Made by a program: the position numbers and the translations under genes | Notes under the pieces: model-generated | Told to the model about the DNA's origin: nothing | Seen by the model: only the letters and a program-made list of their open reading frames with translations | Database searches by the model: none | DNA from: Clostridia bacterium | GTDB taxonomy: Bacteria; Bacillota; Clostridia; Christensenellales; Aristaeellaceae | Length of the DNA stretch: 64,000 bases | Direction: 5' to 3' | Assembly: GCA_017937505.1 (NCBI GenBank) | Contig: JAGBDL010000162.1 | Span: 29-64,028 of the forward strand | Shown: positions 8,239 to 38,741 of the stretch, one piece after another | Layout: each line of letters begins with the position of its first letter | How positions within the stretch are numbered: the first letter of the stretch is position 1

Positions 8239-8290
8239 GTCCTGCCTCCTGTAAAAAGAGGGAAAGTCCCTCCGGATTTTTGATATGCAC

Positions 8291-8563: not shown

Positions 8564-10639
<2,076 letters not shown>

Positions 10640-21420: not shown

Positions 21421-22242
21421 TTGCAACCAACCATTCTATCTATCGCAAACCAGAAGGGCGGAGTCGGCAAGACAACCACCTGCACCAACCTGGGCTTCGG
21501 ACTTGCGCAGGAGGGCAAGCGTGTGCTGCTGGTGGACGCAGATCCGCAGGCCAGTCTGACCATCAGCCTCGGCTGGCCCCAGCCGGACGCGCTGCCCGTC
21601 ACGCTGTCCACGCTCATGGGCCGCGCGCTCATGGACGAGCCAATCCGCGCGGAGGAAGCGATACTCCACCACGCGGAGGGCGTGGACGTGCTGCCCGCCA
21701 GCATCGAGCTGTCCGGCATGGAGGTGTCCCTCGTGAACGCCATGAGCCGGGAAACCGTGCTGCGGCAGGTGCTGGACGGCGTAAAGCGGCAGTACAGCCA
21801 TATCCTCATCGACTGTATGCCCTCGCTGGGGATGCTTACCGTCAATGCGCTTGCCGCATCGAACAGGGTGCTCATTCCCGTGCAGGCGCAGTACCTGTCT
21901 GCCAAGGGTCTGGAACAGCTCCTGCAGACCGTTTCCAAGGTGCACAGGCAGCTCAACCCGAAGCTCGCCATCGACGGCATCCTGCTGACGATGGTGGACA
22001 GCCGCACCAACTATGCCCGTGAGATCAGCGCCCTGCTGCGCGAGACCTACGGGAGCAAAATCAGGGTGTTCGCCACCGACATCCCGCACTCTGTCCGCGC
22101 GGCGGAGATCAGCGCGGAGGGCAAGAGCATCTTTGCGCACGACCCGAAGGGCAAGGTGGCAGAGGCATACCGTGCGTTGACGAAGGAGGTGATGCGCATT
22201 GAAAAGCAGCGCGAAAAACATCAGGCTGACCTCGGTCGATGA
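21421..22242 (+). CDS. parA: ParA/Soj family partition ATPase
   Basis: ILSIANQKGGVGKTTT deviant Walker A, LLVDADPQAS, ILIDCMPSLG. The start is TTG. Confidence 0.9.
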   Translation: MQPTILSIANQKGGVGKTTTCTNLGFGLAQEGKRVLLVDADPQASLTISLGWPQPDALPVTLSTLMGRALMDEPIRAEEAILHHAEGVDVLPASIELSGMEVSLVNAMSRETVLRQVLDGVKRQYSHILIDCMPSLGMLTVNALAASNRVLIPVQAQYLSAKGLEQLLQTVSKVHRQLNPKLAIDGILLTMVDSRTNYAREISALLRETYGSKIRVFATDIPHSVRAAEISAEGKSIFAHDPKGKVAEAYRALTKEVMRIEKQREKHQADLGR

Positions 22243-23128
22243 CCTGTTCTCCACCGAGGAGAGCCGCGCGGATGAGCAGCGCGAGAAGGTGCAGGAGATT
22301 CCCCTCGCGGAGCTGCATCCCTTTCCCAATCATCCGTTCAAGGTCGTGGACGACGAGCGCATGCTTGACACTGCAGACAGTATCCGCGAGCATGGCGTGC
22401 TCGTCCCGGCGATTGCCCGTCCGCGTGCGGACGGCGGCTATGAGCTGATTGCCGGACACCGGCGCAAGCGCGGCTGCGAGCTGGCAGGGCTTGACACCAT
22501 GCCGGTTATCGTCCGCAATCTTGACGACGATGCCTCGACGATCATTATGGTGGATTCGAATATTCAGCGCGAAAGCCTGCTCCCCAGCGAGCGGGCTTTT
22601 GCATATAAAATGAAGCTGGAAGCCATCAAACGGCAAGGTGCGAGAACAGATCTAACTTCTGGACAAGTTGTCCAGAAGTCACGTCTGTCCGTAGAAATCG
22701 TAGCAGATCAAGCGGGCGAAAACTACAAACAGGTTCAACGCTACATCCGTCTCACCGAACTCGTTCCAGACCTGCTCGACATGGTTGACACGAAGAAAAT
22801 CGCGTTCAACCCCGCTGTTGAGCTGTCCTACCTGAAGCCGGAAGAGCAGACAGCGCTGATGGAGGCGATGGACAGCGAACAGGCCACGCCGTCGCTCTCG
22901 CAGGCGCAGCGCCTCAAACGCTTCAGTCAGGAGGGCACGCTGTCGCCCGACATGATGCGCGCCATTCTCTCCGAGGAGAAGAAGGCCGACATGGACAGGG
23001 TGACGCTTACCGGCGACACCTTGCGCAAGTATTTCCCCAAGTCGTACACGCCCCGTCAGATGGAGCAGACCATCCTCAAGCTGCTGGAAGGCTGGCACCG
23101 CCGCCGCCAGCAGTCGCAGGAACGATAA
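22199..23128 (+). CDS. parB: ParB/Spo0J-like partition protein (ParB N-terminal nuclease-like domain)
   Basis: IPLAELHPFPNHPFKV, GVLVPAIARP, YELIAGHRRKRGCE. Confidence 0.9.
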   Translation: MKSSAKNIRLTSVDDLFSTEESRADEQREKVQEIPLAELHPFPNHPFKVVDDERMLDTADSIREHGVLVPAIARPRADGGYELIAGHRRKRGCELAGLDTMPVIVRNLDDDASTIIMVDSNIQRESLLPSERAFAYKMKLEAIKRQGARTDLTSGQVVQKSRLSVEIVADQAGENYKQVQRYIRLTELVPDLLDMVDTKKIAFNPAVELSYLKPEEQTALMEAMDSEQATPSLSQAQRLKRFSQEGTLSPDMMRAILSEEKKADMDRVTLTGDTLRKYFPKSYTPRQMEQTILKLLEGWHRRRQQSQER

Positions 23129-23183
23129 CCCGCCGCACGCGAAGACCGTGCGGCTGTTTGTTTTTGGAAAGAAGGTTGAGACT

Positions 23184-24107
23184 ATGGCGATTTTTCGCGT
23201 AGCCAAGACGCGGGACTACACCGTAATGAGCAATTACCACCTCCGGGACAAGAACCTCTCCCTCAAGGCCAAGGGGCTGCTGTCCCTCATCCTGTCCTTA
23301 CCGGAGGACTGGAACTACACGACGCGTGGATTGGCTGCCATCTGCAAGGAGGGCGTGGACAGCATCGGCGCTGCTCTGCGCGAGATGGAGAGCGCCGGGT
23401 ATCTCACCCGCCATCGCCTGCGCGACAGGAGCGGGCGCATCTCGGATACGGAGTATGTCGTCTATGAGAGTCCGCGCACAGAAACGGAAGCGGATTCGCC
23501 GGATAAGGTTTCGCAGGGCACGGACGAACCGGATACGGCTTCGCCGTGTACGGAAAATCCGTATATGGTTTTCCCGGATATGGCAACGCCGCAAACGGAT
23601 GCGCCGGATACGGAAAAGCCTGCGCAATTAAGTACTGAGGTATCCAATACGTATGAATCAAATACCCAAAAATCAAATCCTGATCCAATCATAGTCCAAA
23701 AACAAAGGGCTCAGCAAGCCGATACTGGCATGAGCGATATGGATCAGATGGATGCAAGGGAGTACCGGAAAACGTTCGCCGAAGTTAAGGAGCAGATCGA
23801 ATATGACGCACTGGATACGCCGCACGACCATGAACGTCTGGGCGAAATCGTGGAGATCATGACGGAGACGCTGTGCAGCCGCAAGCCGTATATCAAGGTC
23901 GCCGGAGAGAATTACCCCGCCGAGGTGGTCAAGAGCCGGTTCAAAAAGCTGAGCTATCATCACATCGAGTACGTCTTTCTGAGCCTCGATAAGAAGCATA
24001 CCGAGGTGCGCAATATCCGGCAGTACCTGATGACGACGCTCTATCATGCGCCAACGACGATGAGCAATTACTACGACGCGGAGGTGCGAAGCGCAGGGAT
24101 TTTGTAA
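23184..24107 (+). CDS. winged-helix replication-initiator-like protein of conjugative/mobilisable elements
   Basis: MAIFRVAKTRDYTVMSNYHLRDKNLSLKAKGLLSLILSLPEDWNYT is the conserved N-terminus of this element-borne family. The central low-complexity PD-repeat region follows. Confidence 0.7.
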   Translation: MAIFRVAKTRDYTVMSNYHLRDKNLSLKAKGLLSLILSLPEDWNYTTRGLAAICKEGVDSIGAALREMESAGYLTRHRLRDRSGRISDTEYVVYESPRTETEADSPDKVSQGTDEPDTASPCTENPYMVFPDMATPQTDAPDTEKPAQLSTEVSNTYESNTQKSNPDPIIVQKQRAQQADTGMSDMDQMDAREYRKTFAEVKEQIEYDALDTPHDHERLGEIVEIMTETLCSRKPYIKVAGENYPAEVVKSRFKKLSYHHIEYVFLSLDKKHTEVRNIRQYLMTTLYHAPTTMSNYYDAEVRSAGIL

Positions 24108-24122
24108 TGCCATGCGAAGGAT

Positions 24123-24410
24123 GTGCTGATGGGCATTTCACCAACGAGGCAAGGCTGTCGAGCAAGACGGATTATGAACAACCAACAACCGCATATCAGG
24201 AGGCCCAAAGTGTACAAGAATCATGAATGCTATGCTGACCCAACAGCCGGGCAGGCATTAGCCCGCATTGCGCGTGAGGAACAGCTTCATGCCCAAGCGA
24301 AACGGATGAAAGCGATAAAATACAGGCTGGCGTGGACAAATCCAGTATTCCTTTGTCCGGCCGACCATGGGAGGAATTGCATTGGCCATCAGGAAAACCA
24401 GCAGCGTTAA
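24123..24410 (+). CDS. hypothetical small protein
   Basis: ORF only, with backbone-like codon usage. Start uncertain (GTG 24123 or ATG 24174). Confidence 0.35.
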   Translation: MLMGISPTRQGCRARRIMNNQQPHIRRPKVYKNHECYADPTAGQALARIAREEQLHAQAKRMKAIKYRLAWTNPVFLCPADHGRNCIGHQENQQR

Positions 24411-24690
24411 GGGAGAAGAAAACCCGTGGCAGGCGCTGGCCGACGCCATCATCATTCAGGCGGTCAAAGATTATCGAAACCGCGCCCGGATGATCAAGCG
24501 AATCCGCGGGCGCCTCAAGAGAGCAAGGAAAATGACCCCATCCGAATTGACCTTTCAGGCACAGCGCCTGCAGCGATACGAAGAAGAGCAGGTTGCCGCG
24601 CGCAGATTCTTCTGCTCCAGATGGTTTGGTACTTTGTCTGATTTGGACGGATACGATCTGATTGATAGACTGCAAAAGGAGGCGATGTGA
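24367..24690 (+). CDS. hypothetical protein (element-borne)
   Basis: ORF whose stop overlaps the next start (ATGA-type coupling). The motif ALADAIIIQAVKDYRN recurs in element regulatory modules. Confidence 0.5.
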   Translation: MGGIALAIRKTSSVKGEENPWQALADAIIIQAVKDYRNRARMIKRIRGRLKRARKMTPSELTFQAQRLQRYEEEQVAARRFFCSRWFGTLSDLDGYDLIDRLQKEAM

Positions 24691-25124
24691 TGCCGGTTGA
24701 TGCGCTTTTGGGAGAGCTGCGGTTTGCAGAACGCCGCTTGATTGCTGCAGAGGAACGGGTGGCTTTTTGCCGGGCAACAGCAGCAAAAACCTCGGTAGTA
24801 TTGGGTAGTCAATGTGTTTCAAAAGCGCGCGACGTTGCTTCCCATGAGAATGCCGTTATCCGCTTGATGGAAGCCGAGTGGGAGTATACCGAAGCGGAAC
24901 AGCAGTACAGTGACGTGCGCGATCATGTTTGTTCGCTTCTTCAAAGGCTGGATGATCCGATGAATGCCGGTATTCTGAAGCTGCGGCATGTGGAGCACAA
25001 GCGAATGTCAGCCATTGCGAATGAGCTCCATCTCAGTCGTTCCAGCGTTTATCGCCGGTATACGCTTGCATTGGCGGAGCTGAAAAGCGTGCTTCAGATG
25101 CAGGATGGACATGCCGGCAGTTGA
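24687..25124 (+). CDS. sigma-70 region-4-like HTH regulator (element late/transfer-gene regulator type)
   Basis: C-terminal KRMSAIANELHLSRSSVYRRYTLALAELK matches a sigma region 4.2 HTH. Confidence 0.6.
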   Translation: MMPVDALLGELRFAERRLIAAEERVAFCRATAAKTSVVLGSQCVSKARDVASHENAVIRLMEAEWEYTEAEQQYSDVRDHVCSLLQRLDDPMNAGILKLRHVEHKRMSAIANELHLSRSSVYRRYTLALAELKSVLQMQDGHAGS

Positions 25125-25284
25125 GGTATTCCCTGACAACATTGACGGTTTCTTTTTTTCAGAGTACGATGAATGCAGAAAAACGAAATCCGGAAGGAGC
25201 TTGGCGGTGCGGTCAGCATGAGCATCGGCTAGGAACTGTGATAGATTGAAGCGACAATACGCAAAGCGGAAAGGAGCCTTGACC

Positions 25285-25638
25285 ATGATCGAACTGAACT
25301 ACAAGCGCAGCGGGGATTACCTGCTGCCTGACCTGGGTCTGACTGAAACAGAATAGTTGCCGCTGGGCAAGTATGGCCTGCTCAGACAGTACTATCTGGA
25401 GGAGAATCGCCCGGGCCTGTACACGAGGCTGATTCTCAGCGGAAAGCTGATGGAACATCTTCAGGAGATCGAGCAGACGGCACAGAGCCGCCTCGAAAGC
25501 CTGATGAGCCAGCTGTCGAAGCAAGCGGACGTAACGGAGGAGCTGAAAGCCCGGGATCAGATGGCTTGGGTGCAGCGGATGAACGCACTGCAAGCACAGG
25601 CCGAGGAGATGATCCTGTCGGAGCTGATTTACGCCTGA
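25285..25638 (+). pseudogene. tnpV: TnpV-like protein with in-frame TAG at codon 24
   Basis: MIELNYKRSGDYLLPDLGLTETE-TAG(25354-25356)-LPLGKYGLLRQYYLEENRPGLYTRLILSGKLMEHL is continuous homology across the stop. Confidence 0.7.
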
Positions 25639-25951: not shown

Positions 25952-26018
25952 AAGTGATTTTGCCTGCGGCGGTTTGTGTGCATCACAGATCGCCGCTTTT
26001 CTTTTTGTGGAGGAACGT

Positions 26019-26198
26019 ATGGCGACCACTCGAATTATTCCGATGCACATCAACAAGGGAAAGACCATAGCACAATGCCTGAAGGCGCGGGTGGAATATG
26101 TGAAGAACCCGGACAAAACGGATGGCGGCGAGCTGATTTCATCGTATGCCTGCTCGCCGGAAACAGCAGACCAGGAGTTTCTGATTGCGCAGAATTAG
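26019..26198 (+). pseudogene. relaxase/mobilisation nuclease, N-terminal 59-codon stub
   Basis: MATTRIIPMHINKGKTIAQCLKARVEYVKNPDKTDGGELISSYACSPETADQEFL is the conserved start of MobA/VirD2-type relaxases. The ORF stops exactly where base composition switches to AT-rich. Confidence 0.75.
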
Positions 26199-26679: not shown

Positions 26680-26708
26680 TTGACTTTTGATCTCAATCCA
26701 GCTATTAT
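26680..26708 (+). promoter_or_regulatory. candidate sigma-A promoter of the MTase-HIT-TM-ATPgrasp/MazG operon
   Basis: TTGACT (26680-26685), a 17-nt spacer, then TATTAT (26703-26708). RBS gggagg precedes ATG 26757. Confidence 0.5.
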
Positions 26709-26756
26709 TACTGTAAAATAGGATTTGTATATACAAAATGGGAGGCTGATTATTGG

Positions 26757-27650
26757 ATGAGTAATTACTCCCCTCTTCGGTATCCGGGAGGAAAATCGGC
26801 ATTGTATCCTGTTATTTCCAGCGTGATAGAATCCAATAGAATGAAGCACTGCATATATGTCGAACCTTTTGCTGGCGGTGCAGGCATTGCATGGAGTTTG
26901 CTGATTGATGGCGTAGTAGATCGTGTGATTATTAATGATGCAGATAAAGCTGTATATTCATTTTGGCGAGCTATTGTGGAATCTACGCAATGGTTTGTTG
27001 AGAAGATCAGGACAACGCCGATAACGGTCGATGAATGGCGAAAACAAAGGGATATTCTCCGAAAGTCAAAGAAGTACAGCAAAGAATTGGGTTTTGCAAT
27101 GTTCTTTTTAAATAGAACTAACCGATCAGGCATTTTGGATGCTGGTCCCATAGGCGGTTATGATCAGGCAGGAGAGTATAAAATTGATTGCCGCTTTAAC
27201 AGAGATGAATTAATCGGGAAAATTATAAAGATTTCTGAATACCGGAACAACATCAGAATATACAATCAAGATATTTCGACATTCTTGAAACGGTTTTTGC
27301 CTCAAGGAAACGAAAACAATGAGATATTTGTGTACTTTGATCCACCCTATTATGAAAAGGGTCAGCGATTATACATGAATTCTTTTTCGAGTAAAGACCA
27401 TGAGAGATTAAGGGATTCGGTTGCCCTTCTTGATTGCAGGTGGATCATGACATACGACGACAAGTCTGAGATTGAAGAGCTGTACGAGAGTTATCAGAAG
27501 TGTCGCTTTTCAATCAATTATAGTCTGTCGAATAAAAGAAAAGGTGGAGAACTGATGATTTATAAAGACACATCGTGTATTCCATCTTCTGAGGTTATTT
27601 CAAAATTATCTAAATCAGTTACTTTTGGTAATATTTGTTTGGAGGGATAG
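26757..27650 (+). CDS. D12-class (Dam-like, alpha group) N6-adenine DNA methyltransferase
   Basis: PLRYPGGKSAL, EPFAGGAGIA (motif I), NRTNRSGI, FVYFDPPYY (motif IV). Confidence 0.9.
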   Translation: MSNYSPLRYPGGKSALYPVISSVIESNRMKHCIYVEPFAGGAGIAWSLLIDGVVDRVIINDADKAVYSFWRAIVESTQWFVEKIRTTPITVDEWRKQRDILRKSKKYSKELGFAMFFLNRTNRSGILDAGPIGGYDQAGEYKIDCRFNRDELIGKIIKISEYRNNIRIYNQDISTFLKRFLPQGNENNEIFVYFDPPYYEKGQRLYMNSFSSKDHERLRDSVALLDCRWIMTYDDKSEIEELYESYQKCRFSINYSLSNKRKGGELMIYKDTSCIPSSEVISKLSKSVTFGNICLEG

Positions 27651-27653
27651 AAA

Positions 27654-28280
27654 GTGGATAACTGTAGATTTTGTGGCATAGCTAACGGAAGTATGGATAC
27701 GCAAAAACCTGAAAACGTGAAGATTGCAGAGAGCGAAAAGTTTTTTGCCATTTCCTCGGTTGGTGCGTTGGTGGAAGGTTGGACACTCATTGTGCCCAAA
27801 CACCACTGCTGCTCTATGAAGAACTTATATACCGAAGAAGAGTTTTCTACATTTTCGAATCAACTTGTAAGCATATTGACTGCTTGCTATGGCCCCGTCA
27901 TTGCTTTTGAGCATGGTCCCAACCGTGAAGGCTCTGATACTTCTTGCGGAACTGACCACGCACATATTCATATCGTGCCATATCGTTCTTTGATGGCAAA
28001 ACTTGATGATATGGAAATGGAATGGCAGACATGTAGTGCGTCCCAAGTGTGTGAACTTGTTGGTAGAAATGAGTACCTGTTTTATTGTGAACCGGGTACA
28101 AAATGGGACAATCCGACCGGTCGGGTACATGTTTTGAAAGAGCCCATATCTCAGTTTTTTAGGAAGGTTATTGCTGAAGATTTGGGCGCGCCTGACAAAT
28201 TCAACTATAAAACTAACCCCGATACAACGCTTACGCTGAAAACCATTGAAAGGGTAAGATACTATTGTGCTAAGCATTGA
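27654..28280 (+). CDS. HIT-family nucleotide hydrolase/transferase
   Basis: N-terminal CRFCGI, and the histidine triad GTDHAHIHIVPY. GTG start lies 3 nt after the MTase stop. Confidence 0.85.
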   Translation: MDNCRFCGIANGSMDTQKPENVKIAESEKFFAISSVGALVEGWTLIVPKHHCCSMKNLYTEEEFSTFSNQLVSILTACYGPVIAFEHGPNREGSDTSCGTDHAHIHIVPYRSLMAKLDDMEMEWQTCSASQVCELVGRNEYLFYCEPGTKWDNPTGRVHVLKEPISQFFRKVIAEDLGAPDKFNYKTNPDTTLTLKTIERVRYYCAKH

Positions 28281-28291
28281 GAGGTTTAGAA

Positions 28292-28885
28292 ATGACAGAG
28301 AACAAAACCAATACAAAAGAAGAAGCAGCGGAAGTGACTAAAAGCGCCTCTGTACCGGATGCTATTGAAACAAAGGTAAATACTGATGGCCGAAAGCCCT
28401 ATGAGTGGCAATCAAAATACCCTAAAGAGGCACGAAACGAAATGCTGTGGGAAGCTATATATATTGGTGCAGTTTTGGTCGTGTCCTTTTTGGGATTATT
28501 TCTTAATTGGAGCGGAGTATTCAGTTGCTTTCTGAAAGTAGATCCAACAAGAGTGATTGCCTTCGAAGGAATTTTGCTATATTTCCTTTCTGGCTTGATG
28601 GGAGGCACTATCTTTGGGATAAAATACTTTTATAGAGTCGTAGCACGAGGGTATTGGACACAGGATAGGAAATACTGGAGAGTTTTTTCTCCATGGATTT
28701 CTGCATGTGTGGCTTTGGTTGTTGGGTGCATGATTGTTTCTGGTTACATTAACGCGACTCAGACTCCATCTACTGCGACTGGGGTTTGCGTAGGCTTCAT
28801 TTCTGGTTATTTTGCAGATGAAGCAGTTGGCAAAATGTCTGAAGTAGCAACAGCTCTGTTTGGCTCCAGTAGTAAAGTAAAATGA
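28292..28885 (+). CDS. 4-TM membrane protein, unknown function
   Basis: Hydrophobic helices AIYIGAVLVVSFLGLFLNW, GILLYFLSGLMGGTIFGI, ISACVALVVGCMIVSGY, GVCVGFISGYF. ATG follows gagagg. Confidence 0.7.
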   Translation: MTENKTNTKEEAAEVTKSASVPDAIETKVNTDGRKPYEWQSKYPKEARNEMLWEAIYIGAVLVVSFLGLFLNWSGVFSCFLKVDPTRVIAFEGILLYFLSGLMGGTIFGIKYFYRVVARGYWTQDRKYWRVFSPWISACVALVVGCMIVSGYINATQTPSTATGVCVGFISGYFADEAVGKMSEVATALFGSSSKVK

Positions 28886-28892
28886 GGTGCTT

Positions 28893-31436
28893 ATGATGGC
28901 ACATGTATCTGCACTAAAGCCTATTAGTCCTATGATCTGGGTTACACAGTCAGGTTTTGAGATTATTAATTCTGAGCAGGTTACAATTAGTCGTGTGGGA
29001 GAAAAAGCTTTTGGATTAGCTTCCTTGCCTCCCCAATGGACTCTTCCTTATTTTGTAATCTCGGACAAACTATTTGATGACTATGTCGAAAACCGTGATA
29101 TTGAGAGTGTAGCATCAAAATGGGCTAAAGGAGTAAATGCTGCAGCAGCAAGCTGCACAATATCATCCGACGATCAGATTATTGTGAGATCTAATGCTCA
29201 TTCTGAAGGATTGGCAGAGCGTGGTAAATTTATTTCTGTAGAGGGAACATTTCAAGAGTGGCCTAAATTGGTCAAACAGTGTTTTGATGACTCGTTAGAG
29301 CAGGATGATTCGGGAAATGTCCACATGCCGGTGATTATTCAAAAAAGAGTGACAGCATTGTCTCGTGGACATATTTCAAATGAACGACGTGTAGCCGAGG
29401 AAAATCGTGATTGGAAGGGCGAGATTGAGGGGGCAATTCCAAGGGTATTCTCTGTTTCATTGCGCAGCTGGCGCAAAAAAGTGAAAGTCGATGGTTATAT
29501 TGATTCACCGCTAATGTGCCCTGGAGATAAGGTAATTAGGGATGTATTGTCCATTCCGTGCACATGGGCCACGAATCAACGAATCCGTGTGCATTTCGAG
29601 TGGATATATGACGGTTATTACATTTATCTAGTTCAGGCTGACGAAGAGACAGTGGCTGATGGCATCAATCCAATGAAAGGTGTACATAACACATTGGCTG
29701 CAAAAGAATCTGCTGATACAGGATTTCCTTATTGCGTGCATCCGTTGAAAGCAGAAGATGCAGAGCGATATAAGAAATATGCAAAGATTCAGAATCCGCT
29801 ACTATATCATCGTATAGAACAGCGCACTGCTCCACTTTATATTTTGGACGATGTGGAAACCCTTGAGGCATTGACAAAGAATACAATAACAGCTGGATTA
29901 GAAAAGGATTTACGCATTCTTACATCTCACTCCCTCATTATTCGAACCGATATTGCTACCGACAATAAAGAGGAACGACAACTACTACCGCGAACCAATG
30001 GTATTAAAGATGTAGAAGCAGCTAAGAAGTGGTTATGTGAGAGTTATGCTGAGTTATTGAAACAACCAGGCCAAAAGCCGATTTTTATAATGCATAACTA
30101 CATACCCGCTTTCTCCTCGGCTTTTGCCTATGCGAGTCCAGGCGATAAATTGGTTCGAATAGAAGCATTGTGGGGATTACCTGAAGGCCTGTATTATTAT
30201 AGTCACGATAAACATGTGGTGGATACAAAGCATGCAGATGCCGGAAAAATGGCTCAAAAAGAGTTTGAGGTACAATCGCATCGAAACTACAAGAAATACT
30301 TTGTTTTTCCGATGGAAGACGAGAAATGGGAAGTACAAAGTCTGGCAAATCCCTATGATTGGAGATCTGCTATTCCGAAGGAAGATTGGATAAAAGAAAT
30401 TGCGTATGTTACACGTCGGATTTCTGAAGAAGAAGGAAAAAGTGTCAGTGTAATGTGGTTTGTCGGTGTAGATGATACAACCTACGGATGCAATGTATTT
30501 CCGTGGTATCATGAACCGTTTGAGTATAACGAAGAGCAGACTACGCCACGCAATAAGCTTTCATTCGAAAGGACTCTTGCTATCCACACATTAAAGGACC
30601 TTGAACAATTGGAGAAGCTGGCAACGAAGCCCAATGCAAGTATTAGGAACATTCAGATTCAGCCGACGGATGCCAATATTTTGAGAGATCGGTCTATCAT
30701 TGACAGAATCGGAAATGCTGCGAAAGATCTAGGCGCAAACATTTTACTGGAGGGCGGAATCCTCTCACATGCGTATTACCAGTTGGTTCGTACAGGCGCA
30801 AAGGTTGAAGTTAGACATGCTTTTGAGAAAAAGCAAAGTTTGGAGTTTAACAAGCTAGTAAGAGATAAGATTCCTGAAAAAATACAGTGTAACGGTGAGG
30901 AAGCTGTAACCGCCCAACTAGATAAAAGTATATTGAATCGGCTACTGAAACGTAAATTGGTTGAGGAGGCGTTAGAAGTCCTCGATTCAAAAGAGGAAGA
31001 TAATCTTGTTGTGGAACTTGCAGATATTCTAGAAGTTCTTGACGGAATTCTTGGGCAGCATCAGATTGATATTCAAACAGTCTTACAGCAAAAGCAAAAG
31101 AAGCGTGAAAAAGTGGGTGGATTCGAAAAGGGTGTCTATCTGAAAACGACCTCCAGCCGTGCTATCTCAAGTAAAGGAAAAATTGTTATTGATAGCAACC
31201 CTGTAGACACAAAGCAAAAGGTGTCAAAGTCAACGGATCTGCGCAAGTATTCGACTGCTAATGAATCTTTAACACGAATCAAAGTTCCCGTCACTTTGGA
31301 TAAATGGGAAATTCGTCCAAGTGTCAGAGCAAAGAATATTGATATCGTTCTTAGAGGTGAACGTAAACAAGGAATTTGGCAAATTGAAATCTCTGTTTTC
31401 GAAAAAGCAGAGCAAATGTCGTTCTTCGACATGTAA
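28893..31436 (+). CDS. large fusion protein: PEP/pyruvate-binding (PPDK_N-like) ATP-grasp region + MazG-like all-alpha NTP pyrophosphohydrolase + unknown C-terminal domain
   Basis: ATP-grasp-like motifs VGEKAFGLASL...PYFVIS, IIVRSNAHSEGLAERGKF, MPVIIQKRV, EALWGLPEGLYYY. MazG-like block FNKLVRDKIPEKI...LVEEALEVL...VELADILEVLDGI (ExxE...ExxD). The start lies 8 nt after the TM gene stop. Confidence 0.65.
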   Translation: MMAHVSALKPISPMIWVTQSGFEIINSEQVTISRVGEKAFGLASLPPQWTLPYFVISDKLFDDYVENRDIESVASKWAKGVNAAAASCTISSDDQIIVRSNAHSEGLAERGKFISVEGTFQEWPKLVKQCFDDSLEQDDSGNVHMPVIIQKRVTALSRGHISNERRVAEENRDWKGEIEGAIPRVFSVSLRSWRKKVKVDGYIDSPLMCPGDKVIRDVLSIPCTWATNQRIRVHFEWIYDGYYIYLVQADEETVADGINPMKGVHNTLAAKESADTGFPYCVHPLKAEDAERYKKYAKIQNPLLYHRIEQRTAPLYILDDVETLEALTKNTITAGLEKDLRILTSHSLIIRTDIATDNKEERQLLPRTNGIKDVEAAKKWLCESYAELLKQPGQKPIFIMHNYIPAFSSAFAYASPGDKLVRIEALWGLPEGLYYYSHDKHVVDTKHADAGKMAQKEFEVQSHRNYKKYFVFPMEDEKWEVQSLANPYDWRSAIPKEDWIKEIAYVTRRISEEEGKSVSVMWFVGVDDTTYGCNVFPWYHEPFEYNEEQTTPRNKLSFERTLAIHTLKDLEQLEKLATKPNASIRNIQIQPTDANILRDRSIIDRIGNAAKDLGANILLEGGILSHAYYQLVRTGAKVEVRHAFEKKQSLEFNKLVRDKIPEKIQCNGEEAVTAQLDKSILNRLLKRKLVEEALEVLDSKEEDNLVVELADILEVLDGILGQHQIDIQTVLQQKQKKREKVGGFEKGVYLKTTSSRAISSKGKIVIDSNPVDTKQKVSKSTDLRKYSTANESLTRIKVPVTLDKWEIRPSVRAKNIDIVLRGERKQGIWQIEISVFEKAEQMSFFDM

Positions 31437-32312
31437 ACTATTGGCTCCTATCAACAAGTGTAAACTTGGTTCGATAGGGGCACTGTAGAATGACTTTTTT
31501 ATACTGGATATATGTCCAATCGCTCTAACAGCAGTAAGCGTCAAACCTACAGGCGGGGAGCAAAATTGGCGCAGAGAGTATCGTTCTCCGCGCCAAACTT
31601 GTTTTCACTGATTCAACTGAACATTCCAGGGTAGCAGCTGCGGTACCGTCAAGTATTATGCGCAAATTCATTTACAAGCCTGGCAGGACTCCGTCTGCAC
31701 AGGGTAGGGGAATCTGCCCTTGATTACCCAATAGCAGAAGGCAGAGTGCGCGTCAAGGGCGGCGAAGCCGCTTGCAAAGCCCTTGACGCGAGTTCTGTTT
31801 TCTGCTATCAACCGGCCATAGCTGAGCTCGATGTGGCGATTTCATCTGGTCCCGAACACGACATAGTTTTTCAAGTTTGCTTGTTTTTCTGGATCCCAGT
31901 TTTTCAAGTACTATGGATAAGTATCGCACGATTAGAGGGAGGCATCAGGGCGCGGAATTATTGAGCGGTTACGATGATCTGCCGAGACTGCTTCTTTTTT
32001 GTATGAATCATCCCGATATTCTATAAAATGCCCTATGCCCGTCAAAGCTCAGGAAGCACGATAGGCGTAGGGCGTCTTTTCATTTTTTGGCACAAGCCCG
32101 GCAGACGAATGGCGCAGGCACTCGTCACAACCGCAGAGCCTGCTCTGCCTTACAGGGGATTGGGGGGCGAGCCTCCAACAAGCAAAGTGCAAATAGTAAA
32201 ACGTTTGCCCTGCTTGCCAATATTATGCCAAATTTGAGATAATAGTCGTTATGTCAAATTGTAAACGCTAATATAAAAGTGAGCCACTTTGTAGCGAAAC
32301 GCTCATGAAAAA

Positions 32313-34604
32313 TTGAGCCACCGGAAACAGCCCACTATAATAGTCTCAGACTATATAGGGGGGCGAACAAAGGTGGTTATTACAGTGGAGATTTACAAAC
32401 AGATTCGCAAGATGCGGCTGGACGGCATGAGTCAGAGGCAGATCGCAGCAACGCTCCACATCTCCTGCAATACTGTCAAGAAATACTGGGACGGTAACAG
32501 CGTCCCCTGGGAGAGGAAGGACTACTCCAGGGACGCCTCCGTACTTACTGAGGATGTGGTAGCATTTGTCAGACAGTGTCTGGATGAGGATAGCCAGTGT
32601 AGATCCAAGAAGCAGCATCACACCGCCAAACGTATCTACGACCGGCTGGTAGCCGAATGCGGCTTCACCGGCGGCGAGACAACCGTCCGGCGACTGTTGA
32701 AAGAACTTCGCGAGAAGAGCCAGGCGACATTTGTTCCGCTTATCTTTCCGGCAGGAGATGCCCTGCAGATTGACTGGGGTGAGGTATCCGTCTACTTGAG
32801 TGGCGTCAAAACTACCGTCAACCTCTTCTGCGCGCGACTGTGCTACAGAGGTGCTCCCATGGCTCTGGCATACCGCAGACAGAATGAGGAGAGCTTCCTG
32901 GATGCGCTGGTTCAGGTATTTCAATATTTCGGCGGAGTCCCCAAACGGGTCATCTTTGACAACGGCAAGGTCGCCGTCAAGGACGGCTTCGGCGCCCACG
33001 CCCGGAAGCAGGCGGGTTATGCTGCTCTGGCCGCTCACTACGGTTTTGAAGCGGTATTCTGCAATCCGACTTCCGGCAACGAAAAGGGTTTGGTAGAAGG
33101 TCTGGTGGGCTATATTCGCCGCAATGTCTGCGTTCCGGTTCCCAAAGTGGAAACCATGGAAGATCTGAACCGGATGCTCCTGGAAAAGTGCCTGAACTAC
33201 CTGTCCCACCAAGTTCGCGGCAAAGAATCCTCTGTGGGTGAGATGCTCAAAAAGGAGCGAGAAAAGCTGTACCCTCTGCCCGGCTATCCCTTTGACCCAT
33301 GTAAGCGCGCCACCGGCCGGGTGGACAGGTTCTGTACTGTCCGCTTTGATACGAATAACTACTCTGTTCCTGCTGTGTACTGCGGAAGAGAGGTATCTCT
33401 TAAAGCCGGTCCCGAAACGGTCACCATCTATTTTGAGGGGCAGTGTATTGCCCAGCACCGGCGGTGTCTGGATAGAAAACAGAACATCTACAAGCTGGAA
33501 CATTACCTTCCCTTGCTGGAGAAGAAAGGCAGAGCTATCTTCTACGCCAGACCGGTACAGGAAACCCTGCCTGACTACTTCCTGAATTGGCTGCAGAAGC
33601 AGGATTTGTCCCCAAAAGAACTGGTTGAGATTCTGATCCGTTGTCGGGAGGAAGACTGCGATGTCATTATGACCGAGGCACCCCAACACGCCGCTCCTGT
33701 CCAAATTGAGGATACTGTTGTCGTGCAAGCAGTAGACCTGCATACCTTCTGCGCACATGAACATCCTGAATGCAGCGAACTGACAGAGTGGTTGATTCTC
33801 GAATGGCTGAGACCGGTCATGAAGAAGGAACCCGCTGTCATTCACCAGCACATCTGCTTTATGAACGGATTTGCCCGGTATCTGAACAATGTGGGAAAAC
33901 CGGCATTCATGATGCACAACAGGTTCGCCTGCGGCCGGACACTATTCGTTCCTTATATCTTCTCGGACGATGATTTGACTCGCCTCTTTCATGTCATTGA
34001 CACAAACGGAAAGCATGGAAACCCGTTTCAGCGGATTCAGTTCAGCGTGTATTACAGGCTGATCTACACATGTGGATTGCGCCCAAACGAAGGACGCACG
34101 CTCAGAAAAAAGCATGTGGATCTCCATGCCGGCGAGATTGTCATTGAATGCTCCAAAGAACGCAGAAGCAGAATCGTCGTGATGTCGGATGACATGAGGG
34201 CGCTGGCAGCCAGATACAGCAGCCTGCTGAACGCATGCTTTCCGGATACGGAATTCTTTTTCCCCTCAAAGCATGGCCGGGAGTATCCGGCGACTTTCTT
34301 CCAGACAAACCTTGTCCGCTTCTTTGCCGAGGCCAATCCTGCCATTCCTGCAGACTTCCTGCCTCGTGTGCGCGTCTATGATCTTCGTCACCGCTTTGCC
34401 ACAGCAGCCATTCACCGCTGGCTTGAGCAGGGAAAGCCGGTTGATACCATGCTGCCTTATCTCCAGATGTACATGGGGCACGCAAGGCTTTCTTCTACCG
34501 CGTACTATATCCATCTTTTGCCGGAGCATCTGGTCAAAGCAAGCGGCATGAACTGGGAAGAAATTGGTGACATCCTTCCGGGGGTAGAGCTATGGCAAGA
34601 CTGA
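32313..34604 (+). CDS. chimeric ORF: IS21 IstA transposase (about aa 1-487) fused in frame to the C-terminal catalytic part of a tyrosine recombinase
   Basis: IstA part: VEIYKQIRKMRLDGMSQRQIA (HTH), IDWGEV, FDNGK...NEKGLVE (DDE). After ...VQAVDLHTF come recombinase motifs: GLRPNEGRTL, VYDLRHRFAT, MGHARLSSTAYYIHL. Confidence 0.7.
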   Translation: MSHRKQPTIIVSDYIGGRTKVVITVEIYKQIRKMRLDGMSQRQIAATLHISCNTVKKYWDGNSVPWERKDYSRDASVLTEDVVAFVRQCLDEDSQCRSKKQHHTAKRIYDRLVAECGFTGGETTVRRLLKELREKSQATFVPLIFPAGDALQIDWGEVSVYLSGVKTTVNLFCARLCYRGAPMALAYRRQNEESFLDALVQVFQYFGGVPKRVIFDNGKVAVKDGFGAHARKQAGYAALAAHYGFEAVFCNPTSGNEKGLVEGLVGYIRRNVCVPVPKVETMEDLNRMLLEKCLNYLSHQVRGKESSVGEMLKKEREKLYPLPGYPFDPCKRATGRVDRFCTVRFDTNNYSVPAVYCGREVSLKAGPETVTIYFEGQCIAQHRRCLDRKQNIYKLEHYLPLLEKKGRAIFYARPVQETLPDYFLNWLQKQDLSPKELVEILIRCREEDCDVIMTEAPQHAAPVQIEDTVVVQAVDLHTFCAHEHPECSELTEWLILEWLRPVMKKEPAVIHQHICFMNGFARYLNNVGKPAFMMHNRFACGRTLFVPYIFSDDDLTRLFHVIDTNGKHGNPFQRIQFSVYYRLIYTCGLRPNEGRTLRKKHVDLHAGEIVIECSKERRSRIVVMSDDMRALAARYSSLLNACFPDTEFFFPSKHGREYPATFFQTNLVRFFAEANPAIPADFLPRVRVYDLRHRFATAAIHRWLEQGKPVDTMLPYLQMYMGHARLSSTAYYIHLLPEHLVKASGMNWEEIGDILPGVELWQD

Positions 34605-35662
34605 AGAAGCCGGTGGACGAACGCCTGTTCATGCTGATTAAGAACTGGCTTGGCGTATATCTTCCGACAGAGCGCAAGGCCAGTCCATGCACCATTGCAA
34701 ATTACAGACAGGCGCTGAACCAGTTCCTCACCTATCTGGCAGATAGGAACGGAACAAAACTGGCTGCTGTCACATTTGATATGATGAATGCGGATTCGCT
34801 CAATGATTATCTGAATCATCTGCAAACAGAGCAAAACTGCACTCGTGCCACAAGAAACAACCGGCTTGCCGCCTTGCGGGCATTCATTTCCTACGCTTCG
34901 GCCTGCAGTCCGGAATACGTTGCAACAGCGTTGGATGTAGCCAGAATCAAGACACAGAAGGATGATCCGTTTTCCAAGGTGGAATACCTGACTGAAAACG
35001 CAGCCAGGGCCATCCTTGCAGCACCCGATGTGTCCACTGCCAAAGGCCGCAGAGACCAGACCATGCTCACCGTCCTGTATGACACCGGCGCCCGGATTAG
35101 CGAGCTGCTGGAGCTGCATCTTTCTGATCTGCGGCTCAGCACAACAACTCCGACTGCAACACTTCTCGGCAAAGGCGGTGTCGTCCGCACGGTTCCTCTG
35201 GCAAAAGAAACCGTGTCCATGCTGTACAGGTACCTGGCGGAGTTTCACCCGGATGAGCTGTTGACATCCTGCGCGCTGCTGTTCTTTACCAGCCACAGGA
35301 ACGGCCGGCAGAAGATGTGCGCGCAAACCGTGCGGGCATGGATGGACAAATACAGAGAGTCTGCCCGGTTGAAATGCCCGGAAGTGCCGGAACATATTCA
35401 TCCTCATATGTGGCGGCATACCCGGGCGATGCATCTGTACCAGCATGGCATGCCGCTGGAACTTGTAGCACAGTGGCTTGGTCACAGGAATCCAACCACA
35501 ACGCTCGTTTATGCTTATGCGGATACAGAGCACAAGCGCAAGGCCATTGAAAAGGCCATGGAACACAGCCAGGTGACAACGGGATTATCCGCCGGTTCCA
35601 GGCAGCCGGCATACCAGATTACCGATGAGGAGCTGCTGAAGCGTCTGTATGGGCTTGATTAA
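34592..35662 (+). CDS. tyrosine recombinase/integrase (XerD-like)
   Basis: N-terminal SAM-like domain (ANYRQALNQFLTYL), GARISELLEL, HPHMWRHTRAMHL, LGHRNPTTTLVYAY. Overlaps the upstream ORF by 13 nt. Confidence 0.85.
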   Translation: MARLKKPVDERLFMLIKNWLGVYLPTERKASPCTIANYRQALNQFLTYLADRNGTKLAAVTFDMMNADSLNDYLNHLQTEQNCTRATRNNRLAALRAFISYASACSPEYVATALDVARIKTQKDDPFSKVEYLTENAARAILAAPDVSTAKGRRDQTMLTVLYDTGARISELLELHLSDLRLSTTTPTATLLGKGGVVRTVPLAKETVSMLYRYLAEFHPDELLTSCALLFFTSHRNGRQKMCAQTVRAWMDKYRESARLKCPEVPEHIHPHMWRHTRAMHLYQHGMPLELVAQWLGHRNPTTTLVYAYADTEHKRKAIEKAMEHSQVTTGLSAGSRQPAYQITDEELLKRLYGLD

Positions 35663-35904: not shown

Positions 35905-36561
35905 TTACCGGTGCAATTGCTCAAGAAATGTGATGGCTTCATTCACGGTAGAAAAGGTTTTGCATTGCTTACACAGCCATTGGTTTCTTTCATCTGTGTC
36001 TTCCAGTCCGGGCAGACCATCCGAAAGAAGGTTACACAGTATCTTTTCTGCATGTTCCACTGCGATAGGATAACGCTCCGCTATGCGTGCAGTTGCTTCA
36101 TAATCTCCTTTGACATAGGAGGCTTCTCTTGCAACAACCTCTGCAAGTATTCTCTCCTTGTCTGCAACCTCCAGCACCGGCGGCGAAAACATTTTGTAGT
36201 GGAGCATCAGCCAATACTCGATACAACCTGTGGTCATGAGCAGGCGAACTCTGATATTCGGATTCCTTCTGAGCCTTCGAAGCCTCTTGATCATCGCCAG
36301 CCGCTGCTCCCATTTCCCGATGTCCTTTGTCTCCACATCAAAGAAAAACCATATCTCATCTGTGACCTCTGCGTAATCCCGGAACTTTGGATCTTTCTGA
36401 AAGCGCCTGTCCGCTTCTTCAAACAATCCGGTTGCAGATGGACGCTTTATGACGGCAACATTTGCAAACCTCTGCTTCAAAAAGTCGGTATATGCCTGCT
36501 CGCTCTCTCCTTCACAGAAGACAAAGATCAGCGGCTTGGCGTGTTTGATCCGGCGGGGCAT
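35905..36561 (-). CDS. RloB-like protein (AbiLii-like)
   Basis: PLIFVFCEGESEQAYTDFL and EIWFFFDVE match the RloB/Toprim-like pattern. Its start overlaps the stop of the upstream ATPase gene. Confidence 0.75.
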   Translation of the reverse strand: MPRRIKHAKPLIFVFCEGESEQAYTDFLKQRFANVAVIKRPSATGLFEEADRRFQKDPKFRDYAEVTDEIWFFFDVETKDIGKWEQRLAMIKRLRRLRRNPNIRVRLLMTTGCIEYWLMLHYKMFSPPVLEVADKERILAEVVAREASYVKGDYEATARIAERYPIAVEHAEKILCNLLSDGLPGLEDTDERNQWLCKQCKTFSTVNEAITFLEQLHR

Positions 36562-37859
36562 TATTCCACCTCCTCAATTTCAATGTTGGGGGTGGCACCG
36601 TATTTACCAAGCAGATAGCCTTTCCGAATATTCTCAGTTGTCCGAGTTGAAAAGTCGCTGATGCTGTACAATTCAGACGCGCCGTCTTCCTGATCCTTAT
36701 CTACAAAATACAGCTGGTCTTTTCGGAGCAGTTCCATGTTCAGCAGCTCCGTGTTATGCGTGGTGAAAATCATCTGCGCACCGAATGGATTTGTTCTTTT
36801 GCTTTGGAACTTCGATACAATGAAGCTTACCAGCAGAGGATGAAGTTCCCGCTCAATCTCATCCACCAGCAAAACGCCGCCATTGGCCAATACAGACTCA
36901 ATCGCCGGTGCTATTGACATGAGTTTTCTGGTGCCGTCAGATTCGTCTTCCAGCTCAAGCGAATAGAGCTGTCTGCTTCCATCCTGATTCCGGCCTTTAT
37001 GCTTGGAAGTCGCCTTGACCTCGCCCATCTTGAGATGAACCTCGGAGTTATTGGATGTTTCGGAAAGCGCCTGCCTAAACTGCATCAATGCAGCCCTGAC
37101 CCCTTCGGGGATTTCATCCGGAAAGGCGGTGCTATCCTGAATTTCCTGGCTGTTGATTTCAAACTGCATTTCCTCAATACCCAGATCAGCAGCCTTGGCA
37201 TAATCGGAAATGGCTTTCAGCATGTTGGTATCGCTGGAGTAGTCAAGAAGCTGACGCGGGATATCGGAATAGTCCCTGGAGAAGAACACCTTTTCTCTGA
37301 ACCATCTCATCGCGCGGGAACAATCTGCATCATTCATGGTGCAGGCAACGGAGAAGAATAGCTGGTTTTCAGCAACAGCTCCCTTGATGAGCTCCCGTCT
37401 CGCTTTATCCTTGCTGAACTCAAAATCCTGTCCTGACCTTGAGAACACCAATGCTTTCTGTCCCTTGGGCGCATGGTACAGTGACTCTGCAAATACTTTT
37501 TCCCTGGTTGCAGAAAAAGAGTACCAGTATCTGACGTCGTCCAGTGTATAGTAGAATTCAAATTCAGTAGGCTCTGACGCCGAATAGTCATTGAGGGCAA
37601 AGGGAACGACAGGAATAGCAGCCTTTTCGTGCTGCGTCCGCTGCGCGTTTCTGATGAATTGAACTGCGAGCCAGAACGCCCGTATCACATTGCTCTTGCC
37701 GCCGCCGTTCTTGCCAAAAATCGCAGCCCCCGGCAGAAGAGTGATGCTATGAAATGGAATGAGAATGCTCTTTAAGGCTCCCAGACCTGTTGCTTCCATG
37801 GAGAGAACGGCATCATCTCGAAACGATCTGTAATTCCTGAAGCGAAATTCGATGAGCAT
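36561..37859 (-). CDS. AAA_21-type ABC-like ATPase (AbiLi/RloA-like)
   Basis: MLIEFRFRNYRSF, GKNGGGKSNVIRAF (Walker A), LLVDEIERELHP (Walker B), IFTTHN. ATG 37859 is preceded by ggaggtg. Confidence 0.8.
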   Translation of the reverse strand: MLIEFRFRNYRSFRDDAVLSMEATGLGALKSILIPFHSITLLPGAAIFGKNGGGKSNVIRAFWLAVQFIRNAQRTQHEKAAIPVVPFALNDYSASEPTEFEFYYTLDDVRYWYSFSATREKVFAESLYHAPKGQKALVFSRSGQDFEFSKDKARRELIKGAVAENQLFFSVACTMNDADCSRAMRWFREKVFFSRDYSDIPRQLLDYSSDTNMLKAISDYAKAADLGIEEMQFEINSQEIQDSTAFPDEIPEGVRAALMQFRQALSETSNNSEVHLKMGEVKATSKHKGRNQDGSRQLYSLELEDESDGTRKLMSIAPAIESVLANGGVLLVDEIERELHPLLVSFIVSKFQSKRTNPFGAQMIFTTHNTELLNMELLRKDQLYFVDKDQEDGASELYSISDFSTRTTENIRKGYLLGKYGATPNIEIEEVE

Positions 37860-38684: not shown

Positions 38685-38741
38685 TAGGAAAAAGCGAGTT
38701 GCTCTTGTGTAATGTGTAACGATATAAAGGATGTGAAAGAC

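Follow-up and report, generated by a model that had tools for sequence, protein, structure and literature searches.

A conserved four-gene cassette linking a Dam-like methyltransferase to HIT, membrane and predicted ATP-grasp/MazG proteins: a candidate defence system

Introduction

When a DNA methyltransferase is found tightly packed with three genes of quite different character, do the four constitute a functional unit, and if so, what might that unit do? The question is raised by a stretch of 64,000 nucleotides from a Clostridia bacterium (GenBank assembly GCA_017937505.1, contig JAGBDL010000162.1; hereafter the window), in which open reading frame (ORF) calling places four same-strand genes at 26757-31436 (+). 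They encode a Dam-like N6-adenine DNA methyltransferase (MTase), a protein of the histidine triad (HIT) type, a small polytopic membrane protein with transmembrane segments (TM) and a large multidomain enzyme, here termed BIG. A first inspection of the letters without database searches (the sequence-only reading) had proposed that the block is an undescribed, nucleotide-directed anti-phage module. As detailed below, the four-gene block is conserved far beyond chance; its invariant unit is a three-gene core, HIT-TM-BIG, to which the MTase is a swappable and sometimes missing accessory. Within the resources searched, sequence comparison indicates that the cassette is most likely an undescribed system, composed of enzyme families that have not previously been tied together in immunity.

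Conservation of the cassette as a unit

A scan of one genome per species yielded 80 related loci, from which 1,095 ORFs were clustered. These loci belong to the Bacillota, Pseudomonadota, Desulfobacterota, Nitrospirota, Acidobacteriota, Bacteroidota, Planctomycetota, Patescibacteria and other phyla, and only four families recur among them, namely BIG (79 loci), TM (73), the MTase (69) and HIT (64, plus 8 in which it is fused). Clustering revealed no fifth recurrent gene and no conserved nuclease. The same gene set is present in approximately 70 of the 80 independent loci. Two points raised by the sequence-only reading, co-conservation of the block across genomes and the want of a restriction endonuclease partner, are borne out; nor does the block itself contain a nuclease domain. 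At E ≤ 1e-30 the BIG family comprises 651 clusters (50% identity), and contigs that carry the TM protein of a single gut lineage number at least 1000.

Adjacency was counted in the 74 loci with enough upstream sequence; HIT adjoins BIG at 72 of these and TM does so at 73. The genes run HIT-TM-BIG without exception, separated by median gaps of 9 and 2 nt. In pairwise identity the three core proteins correlate with one another (Spearman 0.48-0.62), while the MTase shows no correlation with any of them (rho -0.03 to 0.12). Six arrangements of the MTase relative to the core are seen. It lies upstream of the core at 29 loci on the same strand and at 4 in divergent orientation; at 8 loci it is fused in frame to HIT, and at 9 it sits between TM and BIG; and it lies downstream at 11 loci in convergent orientation and at 3 on the same strand. 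Single MTase-HIT ORFs of 498-510 aa, with no stop codon between the two parts, occur at nine related loci (L001, 3375-4907; L037, L040, L042, L051, L052, L055, L072; and L082, 7816-9336) in two divergent lineages of Clostridia. The last of these represents a gut lineage of 856 member sequences, and its MTase-HIT reading frame of 506 aa is free of internal stops; the fusion is genuine, a natural Rosetta-stone fusion.

Intact cores without a nearby MTase are found at L073, L074, L077, L078 and L080, where the neighbouring genes look unrelated to methylases. The only full-length BIG detected on a plasmid, in Caulobacter rhizosphaerae (L081; NZ_CP048816.1, 3741-11624), belongs to a divergent HIT-TM-BIG core (BIG 26.6% identical) that is preceded by a 619-aa protein annotated by NCBI as a class I S-adenosylmethionine-dependent methyltransferase, non-homologous to the cassette MTase and without a Pfam match, and is followed by a 713-aa GNAT-PIN protein. 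The idea that a non-homologous MTase generally replaces the Dam-like enzyme at MTase-less loci was discarded, the Caulobacter protein having no homologue at the other loci. Two further loci carry conventional restriction-modification (R-M) genes. At L023, the sole locus with a restriction endonuclease beside its MTase, the nearby Dam-like enzyme is paired with a NotI-like endonuclease. At L009 (Desulfovibrio, 3906-9613), a BIG homologue without HIT or TM lies beside a type I R-M system and is preceded by a 763-aa protein (Pfam PPDK_N, 4.7e-15) and a 223-aa protein without an assigned family; this locus may be a distinct variant of the cassette. The R-M systems at both loci could serve as a source of N6-methyladenine (m6A) for the core.

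Since the MTase may be swapped, supplied by a neighbour or absent, does not co-evolve with the core and is accompanied by no nuclease, the pattern suggests a core that can take the m6A it needs from any source rather than from a dedicated partner, a requirement that the pattern fits at least as well as classical self-marking. A rival explanation is a BREX- or type III-like epigenetic restriction system, in which the methylase (with HIT) would be the DNA-recognition subunit and methylate host sites; on meeting unmethylated incoming DNA it would recruit or activate the membrane-anchored HIT-TM-BIG complex, which would block phage DNA replication or entry without a classical nuclease. This is an unlikely explanation, though a serious contender. 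It can draw on the R-M-like signature of an MTase beside non-MTase genes in one operon, on the retention of the MTase next to the core in 69 of 80 loci through six gene orders and on in-frame MTase-HIT fusions in two lineages, and the swapping of MTases without co-evolution is also typical of the exchange of R-M specificity modules. PD-lambda-5, a validated R-M-like system, has an MTase of the same family (PMC9519451), and the membrane protein of the cassette could position the complex at the site of DNA entry. At the same time, the at least five loci with an intact core and no MTase nearby should be lethal under such a scheme unless a distant MTase exists, the core has no DNA-binding, translocase or nuclease domain, and the signature genes of BREX, DISARM and Pgl are all absent.

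The internal co-evolution of the core, in which the MTase takes no part, and the occurrence of MTase-less cores would also suit an abortive infection (Abi) or toxin module that is independent of the MTase. Here HIT-TM-BIG would sense another cue, for instance membrane perturbation, and kill or arrest the cell, the methylase being an unrelated orphan anti-restriction MTase of mobile elements that travels along. The TM protein, at approximately 200 aa, is like the KwaA membrane sensors of Kiwa in size and layout, and none of the PADLOC KwaA models matches it. Hitch-hiking, however, cannot explain an MTase at 69 of 80 loci across phyla in six arrangements, and it leaves unaccounted for both the repeated MTase-HIT fusion and the annotated non-homologous methyltransferase of Caulobacter; we consider this explanation decidedly improbable.

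Domain architecture of the four proteins

The MTase matches Pfam MethyltransfD12 (PF02086; E 8.8e-22, 78.5 bits against a cutoff of 22) and contains the motifs SPLRYPGGK (aa 5-13), EPFAGG (aa 36-41) and DPPY (aa 195-198; nt 27339-27350), which are kept across 70 homologues; the score above the gathering threshold, together with EPFAGG and DPPY, places it in the D12 class. In PADLOC it is matched over its full length by PD-Lambda-5_B (E 5.3e-115) and also by MTase_II (E 3.8e-88). Its score with the NCBIfam 'dam' model (77.9) lies below the cutoff of 114.85, and it is therefore not an equivalog of Escherichia coli Dam.

Membership of the second protein in the HIT superfamily is indicated by its histidine triad, HAHIHIV (aa 102-108; nt 27957-27977), and by a match to Pfam CwfJ_C_1, a family of the HIT clan (E 8.2e-6; 26.1 bits against a cutoff of 21); the HIT model itself falls just below its cutoff (E 8.6e-4, 20.3 bits against 21.5). 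The protein also carries CRFC (aa 4-7) and FEHG (aa 85-88), and 65 homologues keep CxxC, FEHG, CG..HAHLH.VP and SQ.FR. The D12 and HIT calls made from the letters are thus upheld, and the DPPY, HAHIHIV and ExxE/ExxD motifs (the last in BIG, see below) lie where they had been placed.

Hydropathy analysis of the TM protein gives three strong transmembrane segments and one that is weak and amphipathic, so that the small polytopic membrane protein proposed earlier stands while the clean count of four segments does not (three to four being predicted). Its conservation is concentrated in the patterns tD.R..s.Y, G.lGG..f..K..Y..vA.g.W..DR..WR and GYF.D.A..K, which hydropathy and the distribution of K/R assign to a cytoplasmic N-terminal tail, the TM2-TM3 loop and a cytoplasmic C-terminal tail; the K/R-rich loop, like all of the conserved motifs, is predicted to be on the cytoplasmic side. 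The protein belongs to no family in Pfam, PADLOC or NCBIfam.

BIG was modelled with AlphaFold (predicted local distance difference test score, pLDDT, 74.6, mostly 80-94 in the N-terminal half; predicted template modelling score, pTM, 0.48) and is predicted to consist of four regions (Table 1). Sixty-five positions are at least 97% conserved across 76 full-length homologues of 29-100% identity, and these include the ATP-grasp motifs, the metal-binding acidic residues and His626. The first region, with the motifs VGEKAFGL, IVRS..SEG..RGK, GHxSNERR, HFEWxxDG..VQAD and WGLPEG, has as its best Foldseek matches in the Protein Data Bank (PDB) the ATP-binding domain of rifampin phosphotransferase (5hv2, 5hv1 and 5hv6; E 5.7e-8 to 2.7e-6, probability 1.0, TM-score on the target 0.52-0.55), followed by pyruvate phosphate dikinase (PPDK; 2r82 and 1kbl) and, more weakly, other ATP-grasps. 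An internal duplication of this region into two PPDK_N-like halves was considered and rejected (hhalign between aa 25-262 and aa 300-548: 16 columns aligned, E 0.13).

The second region contains His626 (codon 30768-30770) in a loop in which H626, G621, L624, Y629 and L631 are at least 97% conserved. A swivelling phosphohistidine domain of the PEP-utilizers type was rejected for aa 556-641, as a separate model of aa 556-847 received no support from Foldseek; PEP-utilizers matches 0 of 19 BIG members in Pfam even at E ≤ 10, and the region does not qualify as a GGxTSHA-type swivel domain, though its GGxLSH motif is invariant.

The third region belongs to the MazG/HisE superfamily of nucleoside triphosphate (NTP) pyrophosphohydrolases. 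Pfam PRA-PH matches all 19 BIG members (best 4.4e-6) and MazG matches 13 of 19, the copy in the window scoring 18.8 bits with PRA-PH, below the cutoff of 21.3. The motifs are KLVRDKIP, EExxE (EEALE, aa 691-695) and ExxDxxE (ELADILE, aa 708-714), and the six metal-binding acidic residues, E691, E692, E695, E708, D711 and E714, are invariant. The domain is approximately 40% identical to stand-alone plasmid genes annotated as 'nucleoside triphosphate pyrophosphohydrolase', and Foldseek relates it to 1vmg, 5ie9 and 1y6x (probability 0.93-0.96, but E 0.4-0.65). The C-terminal beta domain has no significant structural match in Foldseek. In a Clostridia subfamily (L031-L033, L037, L040, L042, L043, L051, L052, L055, L072 and L075) the BIG ORFs are 963-1002 aa in length owing to an insertion of approximately 120 aa within the MazG domain; the His626 loop of these proteins reads DGTQLTHSYYQL, with the histidine retained, and this long variant (950-1000 aa) still has the C-terminal beta domain. 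Across the block as a whole, Pfam, PADLOC, NCBIfam and Foldseek revealed no DNA-binding, nuclease or helicase domain.

The domain content bears on two explanations that do not involve phage defence in the usual sense. Enzymes of the PPDK type phosphorylate unusual acceptors, as exemplified by rifampin phosphotransferase, glucan-water dikinase and the L-glutamine kinase of Campylobacter phosphoramidate synthesis. A DNA hypermodification pathway could be envisaged along such lines, in which the methylase-like enzyme, HIT and the phosphotransferase would add or remove a further group on adenine or the backbone, protecting or marking the DNA of the element; the fusions place P-N/P-O nucleotidyl chemistry beside a base-flipping adenine-N6 enzyme, and the MazG domain could shape the pool of modified nucleotides. 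This is nevertheless the least probable of the explanations considered, given that the MTase has every motif of an ordinary Dam-like enzyme and that some loci do without it, that the cassette proteins have no glycosylase-, TGT-, ParB- or DNA-binding domains, that the membrane protein is left unexplained and that no BIG homologues turned up in phages, which commonly carry such pathways.

The other explanation, to which we attach little credence, takes the cassette out of immunity altogether. It could confer resistance to a nucleotide or peptidyl-nucleotide antibiotic, through kinase-type inactivation, a HIT phosphoramidase and the membrane protein, or it could cleanse the cell of N6-methylated (deoxy)nucleoside triphosphates, (d)NTPs, released by turnover of methylated DNA. 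The nearest structural relative of the ATP-grasp region is an antibiotic-inactivating enzyme, HIT phosphoramidases protect against microcin-C-type compounds, the JGI name of the BIG family is 'house-cleaning noncanonical NTP pyrophosphatase', and linkage to an adenine methylase would suit the sanitation of N6-methyl-dATP. A Dam-like DNA methylase, however, has no role in antibiotic resistance, and ordinary R-M and Dam systems need no such companion; the 200-aa membrane protein is no transporter recognizable by Pfam, and a patchy, island-borne spread across phyla beside integrases and defence genes is typical of conflict systems rather than of metabolism.

Gene organization and sequence signals

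The gaps of 3, 11 and 7 nt between the four genes that had been given earlier are correct when ATG starts are used. An alternative TTG start for the TM gene at 28277 would produce a 4-nt overlap with the HIT gene, and alternative starts for BIG exist at 28887 and 28896, its database copy (P0001) being 846 aa in length. The coordinates of the genes, the BIG domains and the flanking signals are collected in Table 1.

Table 1. Genes, predicted domains and candidate signals of the cassette (positions in the window)
Feature	Position	Strand	Remarks
Sigma-70-like promoter match, 5' of operon	26680..26708	+	TTGACT-17-TATTAT, 10/12 match
MTase gene, Dam-like (D12 class) N6-adenine DNA methyltransferase	26757..27650	+	297 aa
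HIT gene, predicted HIT-superfamily nucleotide hydrolase/transferase	27654..28280	+	208 aa, GTG start
TM gene, small polytopic membrane protein	28292..28885	+	197 aa from ATG
BIG gene, multidomain enzyme (entire gene)	28893..31436	+	847 aa
BIG aa ~30-545, predicted ATP-grasp of rifampin phosphotransferase/PPDK/phosphoenolpyruvate (PEP) synthase type	28980..30527	+	AlphaFold and Foldseek; approximate bounds
BIG aa 556-641, predicted small alpha/beta domain with invariant LLEGGxLSHxYYQL loop	30558..30815	+	Secondary structure of model
BIG aa 652-745, MazG/HisE-type all-alpha NTP pyrophosphohydrolase domain	30846..31127	+	Pfam and Foldseek
BIG aa ~775-840, predicted C-terminal beta-sheet domain, long predicted beta-hairpins	31215..31412	+	Low-confidence model
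GC-rich hairpin, 12-bp stem	31566..31596		~130 nt past BIG stop codon; terminator scan

The promoter proposed by the sequence-only reading is present as a sequence, on the plus strand, and is the sole good match on that strand just upstream of the first gene. Sites of this type are not more frequent than chance would have it, the 6.3-kb region having 18 where shuffles predict 14 ± 4.2, and a promoter role for this one is a plausible prediction. A GGGAGG ribosome-binding site (26741-26746) lies ahead of the MTase ATG. Beyond the cassette, a segment of approximately 880 nt (31437-32312) is devoid of a convincing ORF and holds the hairpin, which was scored as a terminator on the minus strand; on the plus strand ACTTGTTTTC comes after it. 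Terminator-type hairpin matches show no enrichment over shuffles, and the hairpin may be a putative (bidirectional) terminator that closes the operon. An Rfam scan of the window, including 31437-32312, returned no match.

Mobile and defence context

The window is largely an integrative element of the Clostridia type, and the four-gene block is a 40% GC island carried by it as cargo. GC content is 0.39-0.44 across 26-32 kb against 0.52-0.66 in the flanks, in agreement with the AT-rich composition attributed to the block earlier. The backbone of the element (21421-25638 and 57624-59228) encodes ParA (AAA_31), ParB, a DUF6017/HTH_36 protein, TnpV and a large serine recombinase. An insertion boundary at a truncated relaxase-like ORF (25974-26198) was considered and dropped, Pfam giving the ORF no support.

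Other defence genes had been said to surround the cassette, and PADLOC confirms several. An AbiLi/AbiLii pair lies 4.5 kb from it at 35905-37958 (-), AbiLi being an AAA_21 ATPase (1.4e-89) and AbiLii RloB-like (2.1e-15); AbiLi/AbiLii is a known abortive infection system. A 717-aa ABC-type ATPase at 38712-40865, within a second low-GC patch (38-43% GC), corresponds to the PADLOC candidate PDC-M49A (8e-35), and a DUF4143/AAA_14 ATPase at 53172-54569 to the candidate PDC-S01 (1.9e-190). Between the cassette and AbiL is a 763-aa ORF (32313-34604) that joins IS21/Mu-type transposase domains (rve and Mu-transpos_C_2) to a C-terminal Phage_integrase domain and may represent a mobile-element gene of chimeric or read-through type; a second tyrosine recombinase (34592-35662) comes next. 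Just past the low-GC cargo, at 41197-43276 (-), an Agr-like two-component pair consists of a sensor kinase of the GHKL/SpoOB type and a response regulator of the LytTR type.

Integrases account for 9 of 130 nearest neighbours at the other loci, where resolvases and transposases also occur, and scattered neighbours include type I, IIG and IV R-M systems, AbiEii, KwaA, Mokosh-like helicases, PD-Lambda-5_A, TacA and Fic. The four genes also occur, in some genomes, as a clean insertion amid housekeeping genes.

Proposed function

Taken together, the block is probably a self-contained, horizontally mobile conflict or defence cassette, directed against phages or other mobile genetic elements. The case for a nucleotide-directed effector is evenly balanced, and a logic built on an m6A-derived signal, which is argued by analogy, is doubtful. 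An m6A-coupled module for nucleotide depletion or alteration is ranked first on the precedent of PUA-Calcineurin-CE-HAD (PUA-Cal-HAD), which needs Dam, senses N6-methyl-dAMP (m6-dAMP) from phage-degraded host DNA and depletes dNTPs (bioRxiv 10.64898/2026.01.15.699771). Relatives of that system have N6-adenine MTases without restriction enzymes and, in some, a MazG effector (bioRxiv 10.64898/2026.01.15.699771). The explanation as a whole, an m6A-coupled defence cassette with a nucleotide-directed effector, is put forward tentatively, as having somewhat less than an even chance of being correct.

In the mechanism that we infer, HIT, TM and BIG are probably produced from one translationally coupled transcript and would be assembled as a complex at the inner face of the membrane, the membrane protein docking the enzymes via its conserved cytoplasmic loops. 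BIG would be the effector, uniting an ATP-driven phosphotransferase module with a MazG-type NTP pyrophosphohydrolase whose catalytic residues are intact. Its ATP-grasp would probably pass phosphate through the invariant His626, and once switched on the protein would consume or chemically alter (d)NTPs and so starve phage replication, the ATP-grasp part providing either an extra ATP-to-AMP sink or control of the enzyme through His626. The HIT protein could bind or process a ligand of the nucleoside monophosphate type, as a sensor or as the second enzyme of a cascade. The Dam-like methylase would supply m6A in the host chromosome, with the core depending on the mark and not on a particular methylase. 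On the most economical view the core would read either breakdown products that bear the methyl mark or the methylation state of DNA, in the manner of m6-dAMP-triggered PUA-Cal-HAD; cleavage of unmethylated DNA would be the alternative.

Several points weigh against this explanation, which is drawn from sequence, predicted structure and context. A predicted structure (pTM 0.48) underlies the ATP-grasp assignment, and sequence comparison does not back it: Pfam PPDK_N matches 0 of 19 BIG family members, BIG has no match in the PDB by sequence, and a bridge to a true PPDK_N protein, the neighbour at L009, was rejected as not significant (hhalign E 0.073), the right motifs being aligned. The earlier description of BIG as a PPDK_N-like ATP-grasp/MazG fusion thus appears right at the level of the predicted fold (Foldseek 5.7e-8; PRA-PH 19/19) and finds no support in sequence for PPDK_N membership; BIG is best left out of the dikinase family, though it may still act like a dikinase. 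Foldseek finds nothing significant for the His626 domain, the predicted fold of which is unlike the PPDK-type swivel domain, so that phosphotransfer via His626 is a guess. Neither a PUA-like domain nor any other known modified-base reader was detected, and a divergent reader could conceivably lie in the C-terminal beta domain of BIG or the C-terminal half of HIT. The PUA-Cal-HAD precedent does not explain the roles of the ATP-grasp module and the membrane protein, and the MTase-HIT fusion suggests a methylase physically integrated into the machinery, an arrangement that a BREX- or type III-like recognition complex would fit at least equally well. No BIG homologues were found in phage genomes, which leaves no hint of counter-defence, and the association with defence islands derives only from sampled loci.

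It is also conceivable, but improbable, that the cassette represents a new class of immune system in which the core reads the cell's own m6A and responds with an unprecedented nucleotide chemistry, a new signal or a new DNA or nucleotide modification and not mere depletion. The readout could then be methylated nucleotides from damaged DNA or a methylase-HIT complex acting on DNA, and outputs might include ATP-driven nucleotide (pyro)phosphorylation or a phosphoramidate adduct on adenine-N6.

Members of the cassette family occur in many phyla and abound in the Clostridia of the human gut. Should it prove to be a defence system, as the m6A-coupled explanation holds, it would be a widespread one with effector enzymes from no known immune family, and a second, independent case of nuclease-free immunity coupled to adenine methylation, with a bearing on how BREX-like systems stop phage and on 'methylome-derived' nucleotides as danger signals. 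BIG would in that event be a new phosphohistidine/ATP-grasp architecture, probably with a new substrate. The MTase is present, fused, swapped or absent according to locus, and this natural variation makes the alternatives directly testable.

Comparison with known systems

The sequence-only reading recognized no named system in the block, and PADLOC v2 concurs, its only match being the MTase (PD-Lambda-5_B), with nothing for HIT, TM or BIG at E ≤ 0.1. Pfam (2025), NCBIfam release 20 (June 2026) and PADLOC v2 hold no model for the N-terminal region of BIG, for TM or for this HIT subfamily. The gene combination is likewise not described in the full-text literature searched, which covers few subscription-journal papers, so that absence from it is not proof.

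The MTase is close to the methylase of PD-lambda-5, a compact R-M plus Abi system (Vassallo et al. 2022; PMC9519451), and to Dam-like MTases of the REBASE type II class. The cassette differs from both in that neither PD-Lambda-5_A nor a restriction endonuclease is present in the block or conserved at the 80 loci; identity with PD-lambda-5 was rejected since only the B component matches and PD-Lambda-5_A is absent from the block, and no nuclease domain is present that would make the block a type II R-M system. Identity with MADS was also rejected: that system has eight genes including a nuclease and an ATPase, and only weak matches to mad2, mad3 and mad8 were obtained, to neighbours of the block and not to the block itself.

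A methylase in an operon with phosphoryl-transfer enzymes, combining modification with a non-obvious restriction arm, recalls BREX, Pgl and DISARM, and Pgl carries a kinase and the PglZ phosphatase. The cassette is much smaller, however, and its MTase is small, Dam-like and dispensable in some loci; no PADLOC match to PglZ, BrxC/PglY, a PglX-type large MTase, BrxL or DrmA/B/C was found among the four proteins. For a HIT-family nucleotide hydrolase/transferase within an operon, the precedent in defence is ThsC, an accessory of some Thoeris systems (PADLOC paper, PMC8565338), although no ThsA or ThsB genes are present at the cassette.

Comparisons can also be drawn for BIG alone. The predicted fold of aa ~30-545 matches the ATP-grasp ATP-binding domain of rifampin phosphotransferase, PPDK and PEP synthase, and its motifs resemble GGKxxxL, VRSSxxxED and GLGE, with an invariant His in a Gly-rich loop downstream. 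In contrast to those enzymes, BIG lacks the TIM-barrel, the rifampin-binding domain and the swivel fold; its fusion with a MazG domain and a beta domain at the C-terminus is unique. Its intact MazG metal ligands and the nucleotide depletion proposed for it are reminiscent of dCTP deaminase, dGTPase and stand-alone MazG/COG4997 NTP pyrophosphohydrolases, but these are single-gene enzymes without methylase, HIT or membrane partners, and the catalytic folds of the validated depletion systems (dCTP deaminase and dGTPase) differ from that of BIG.

The likeness to PUA-Cal-HAD lies in enzymes that handle nucleotide phosphates, linkage to an N6-adenine MTase and a MazG element; a dependence on Dam-type methylation of the host and an output by dNTP depletion would be further likenesses if the proposed function is right. 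The four proteins have no Pfam match to PUA, Calcineurin-like or HAD and do not belong to that system; in place of these domains, the cassette brings together a HIT protein, a membrane protein and a predicted ATP-grasp phosphotransferase module.

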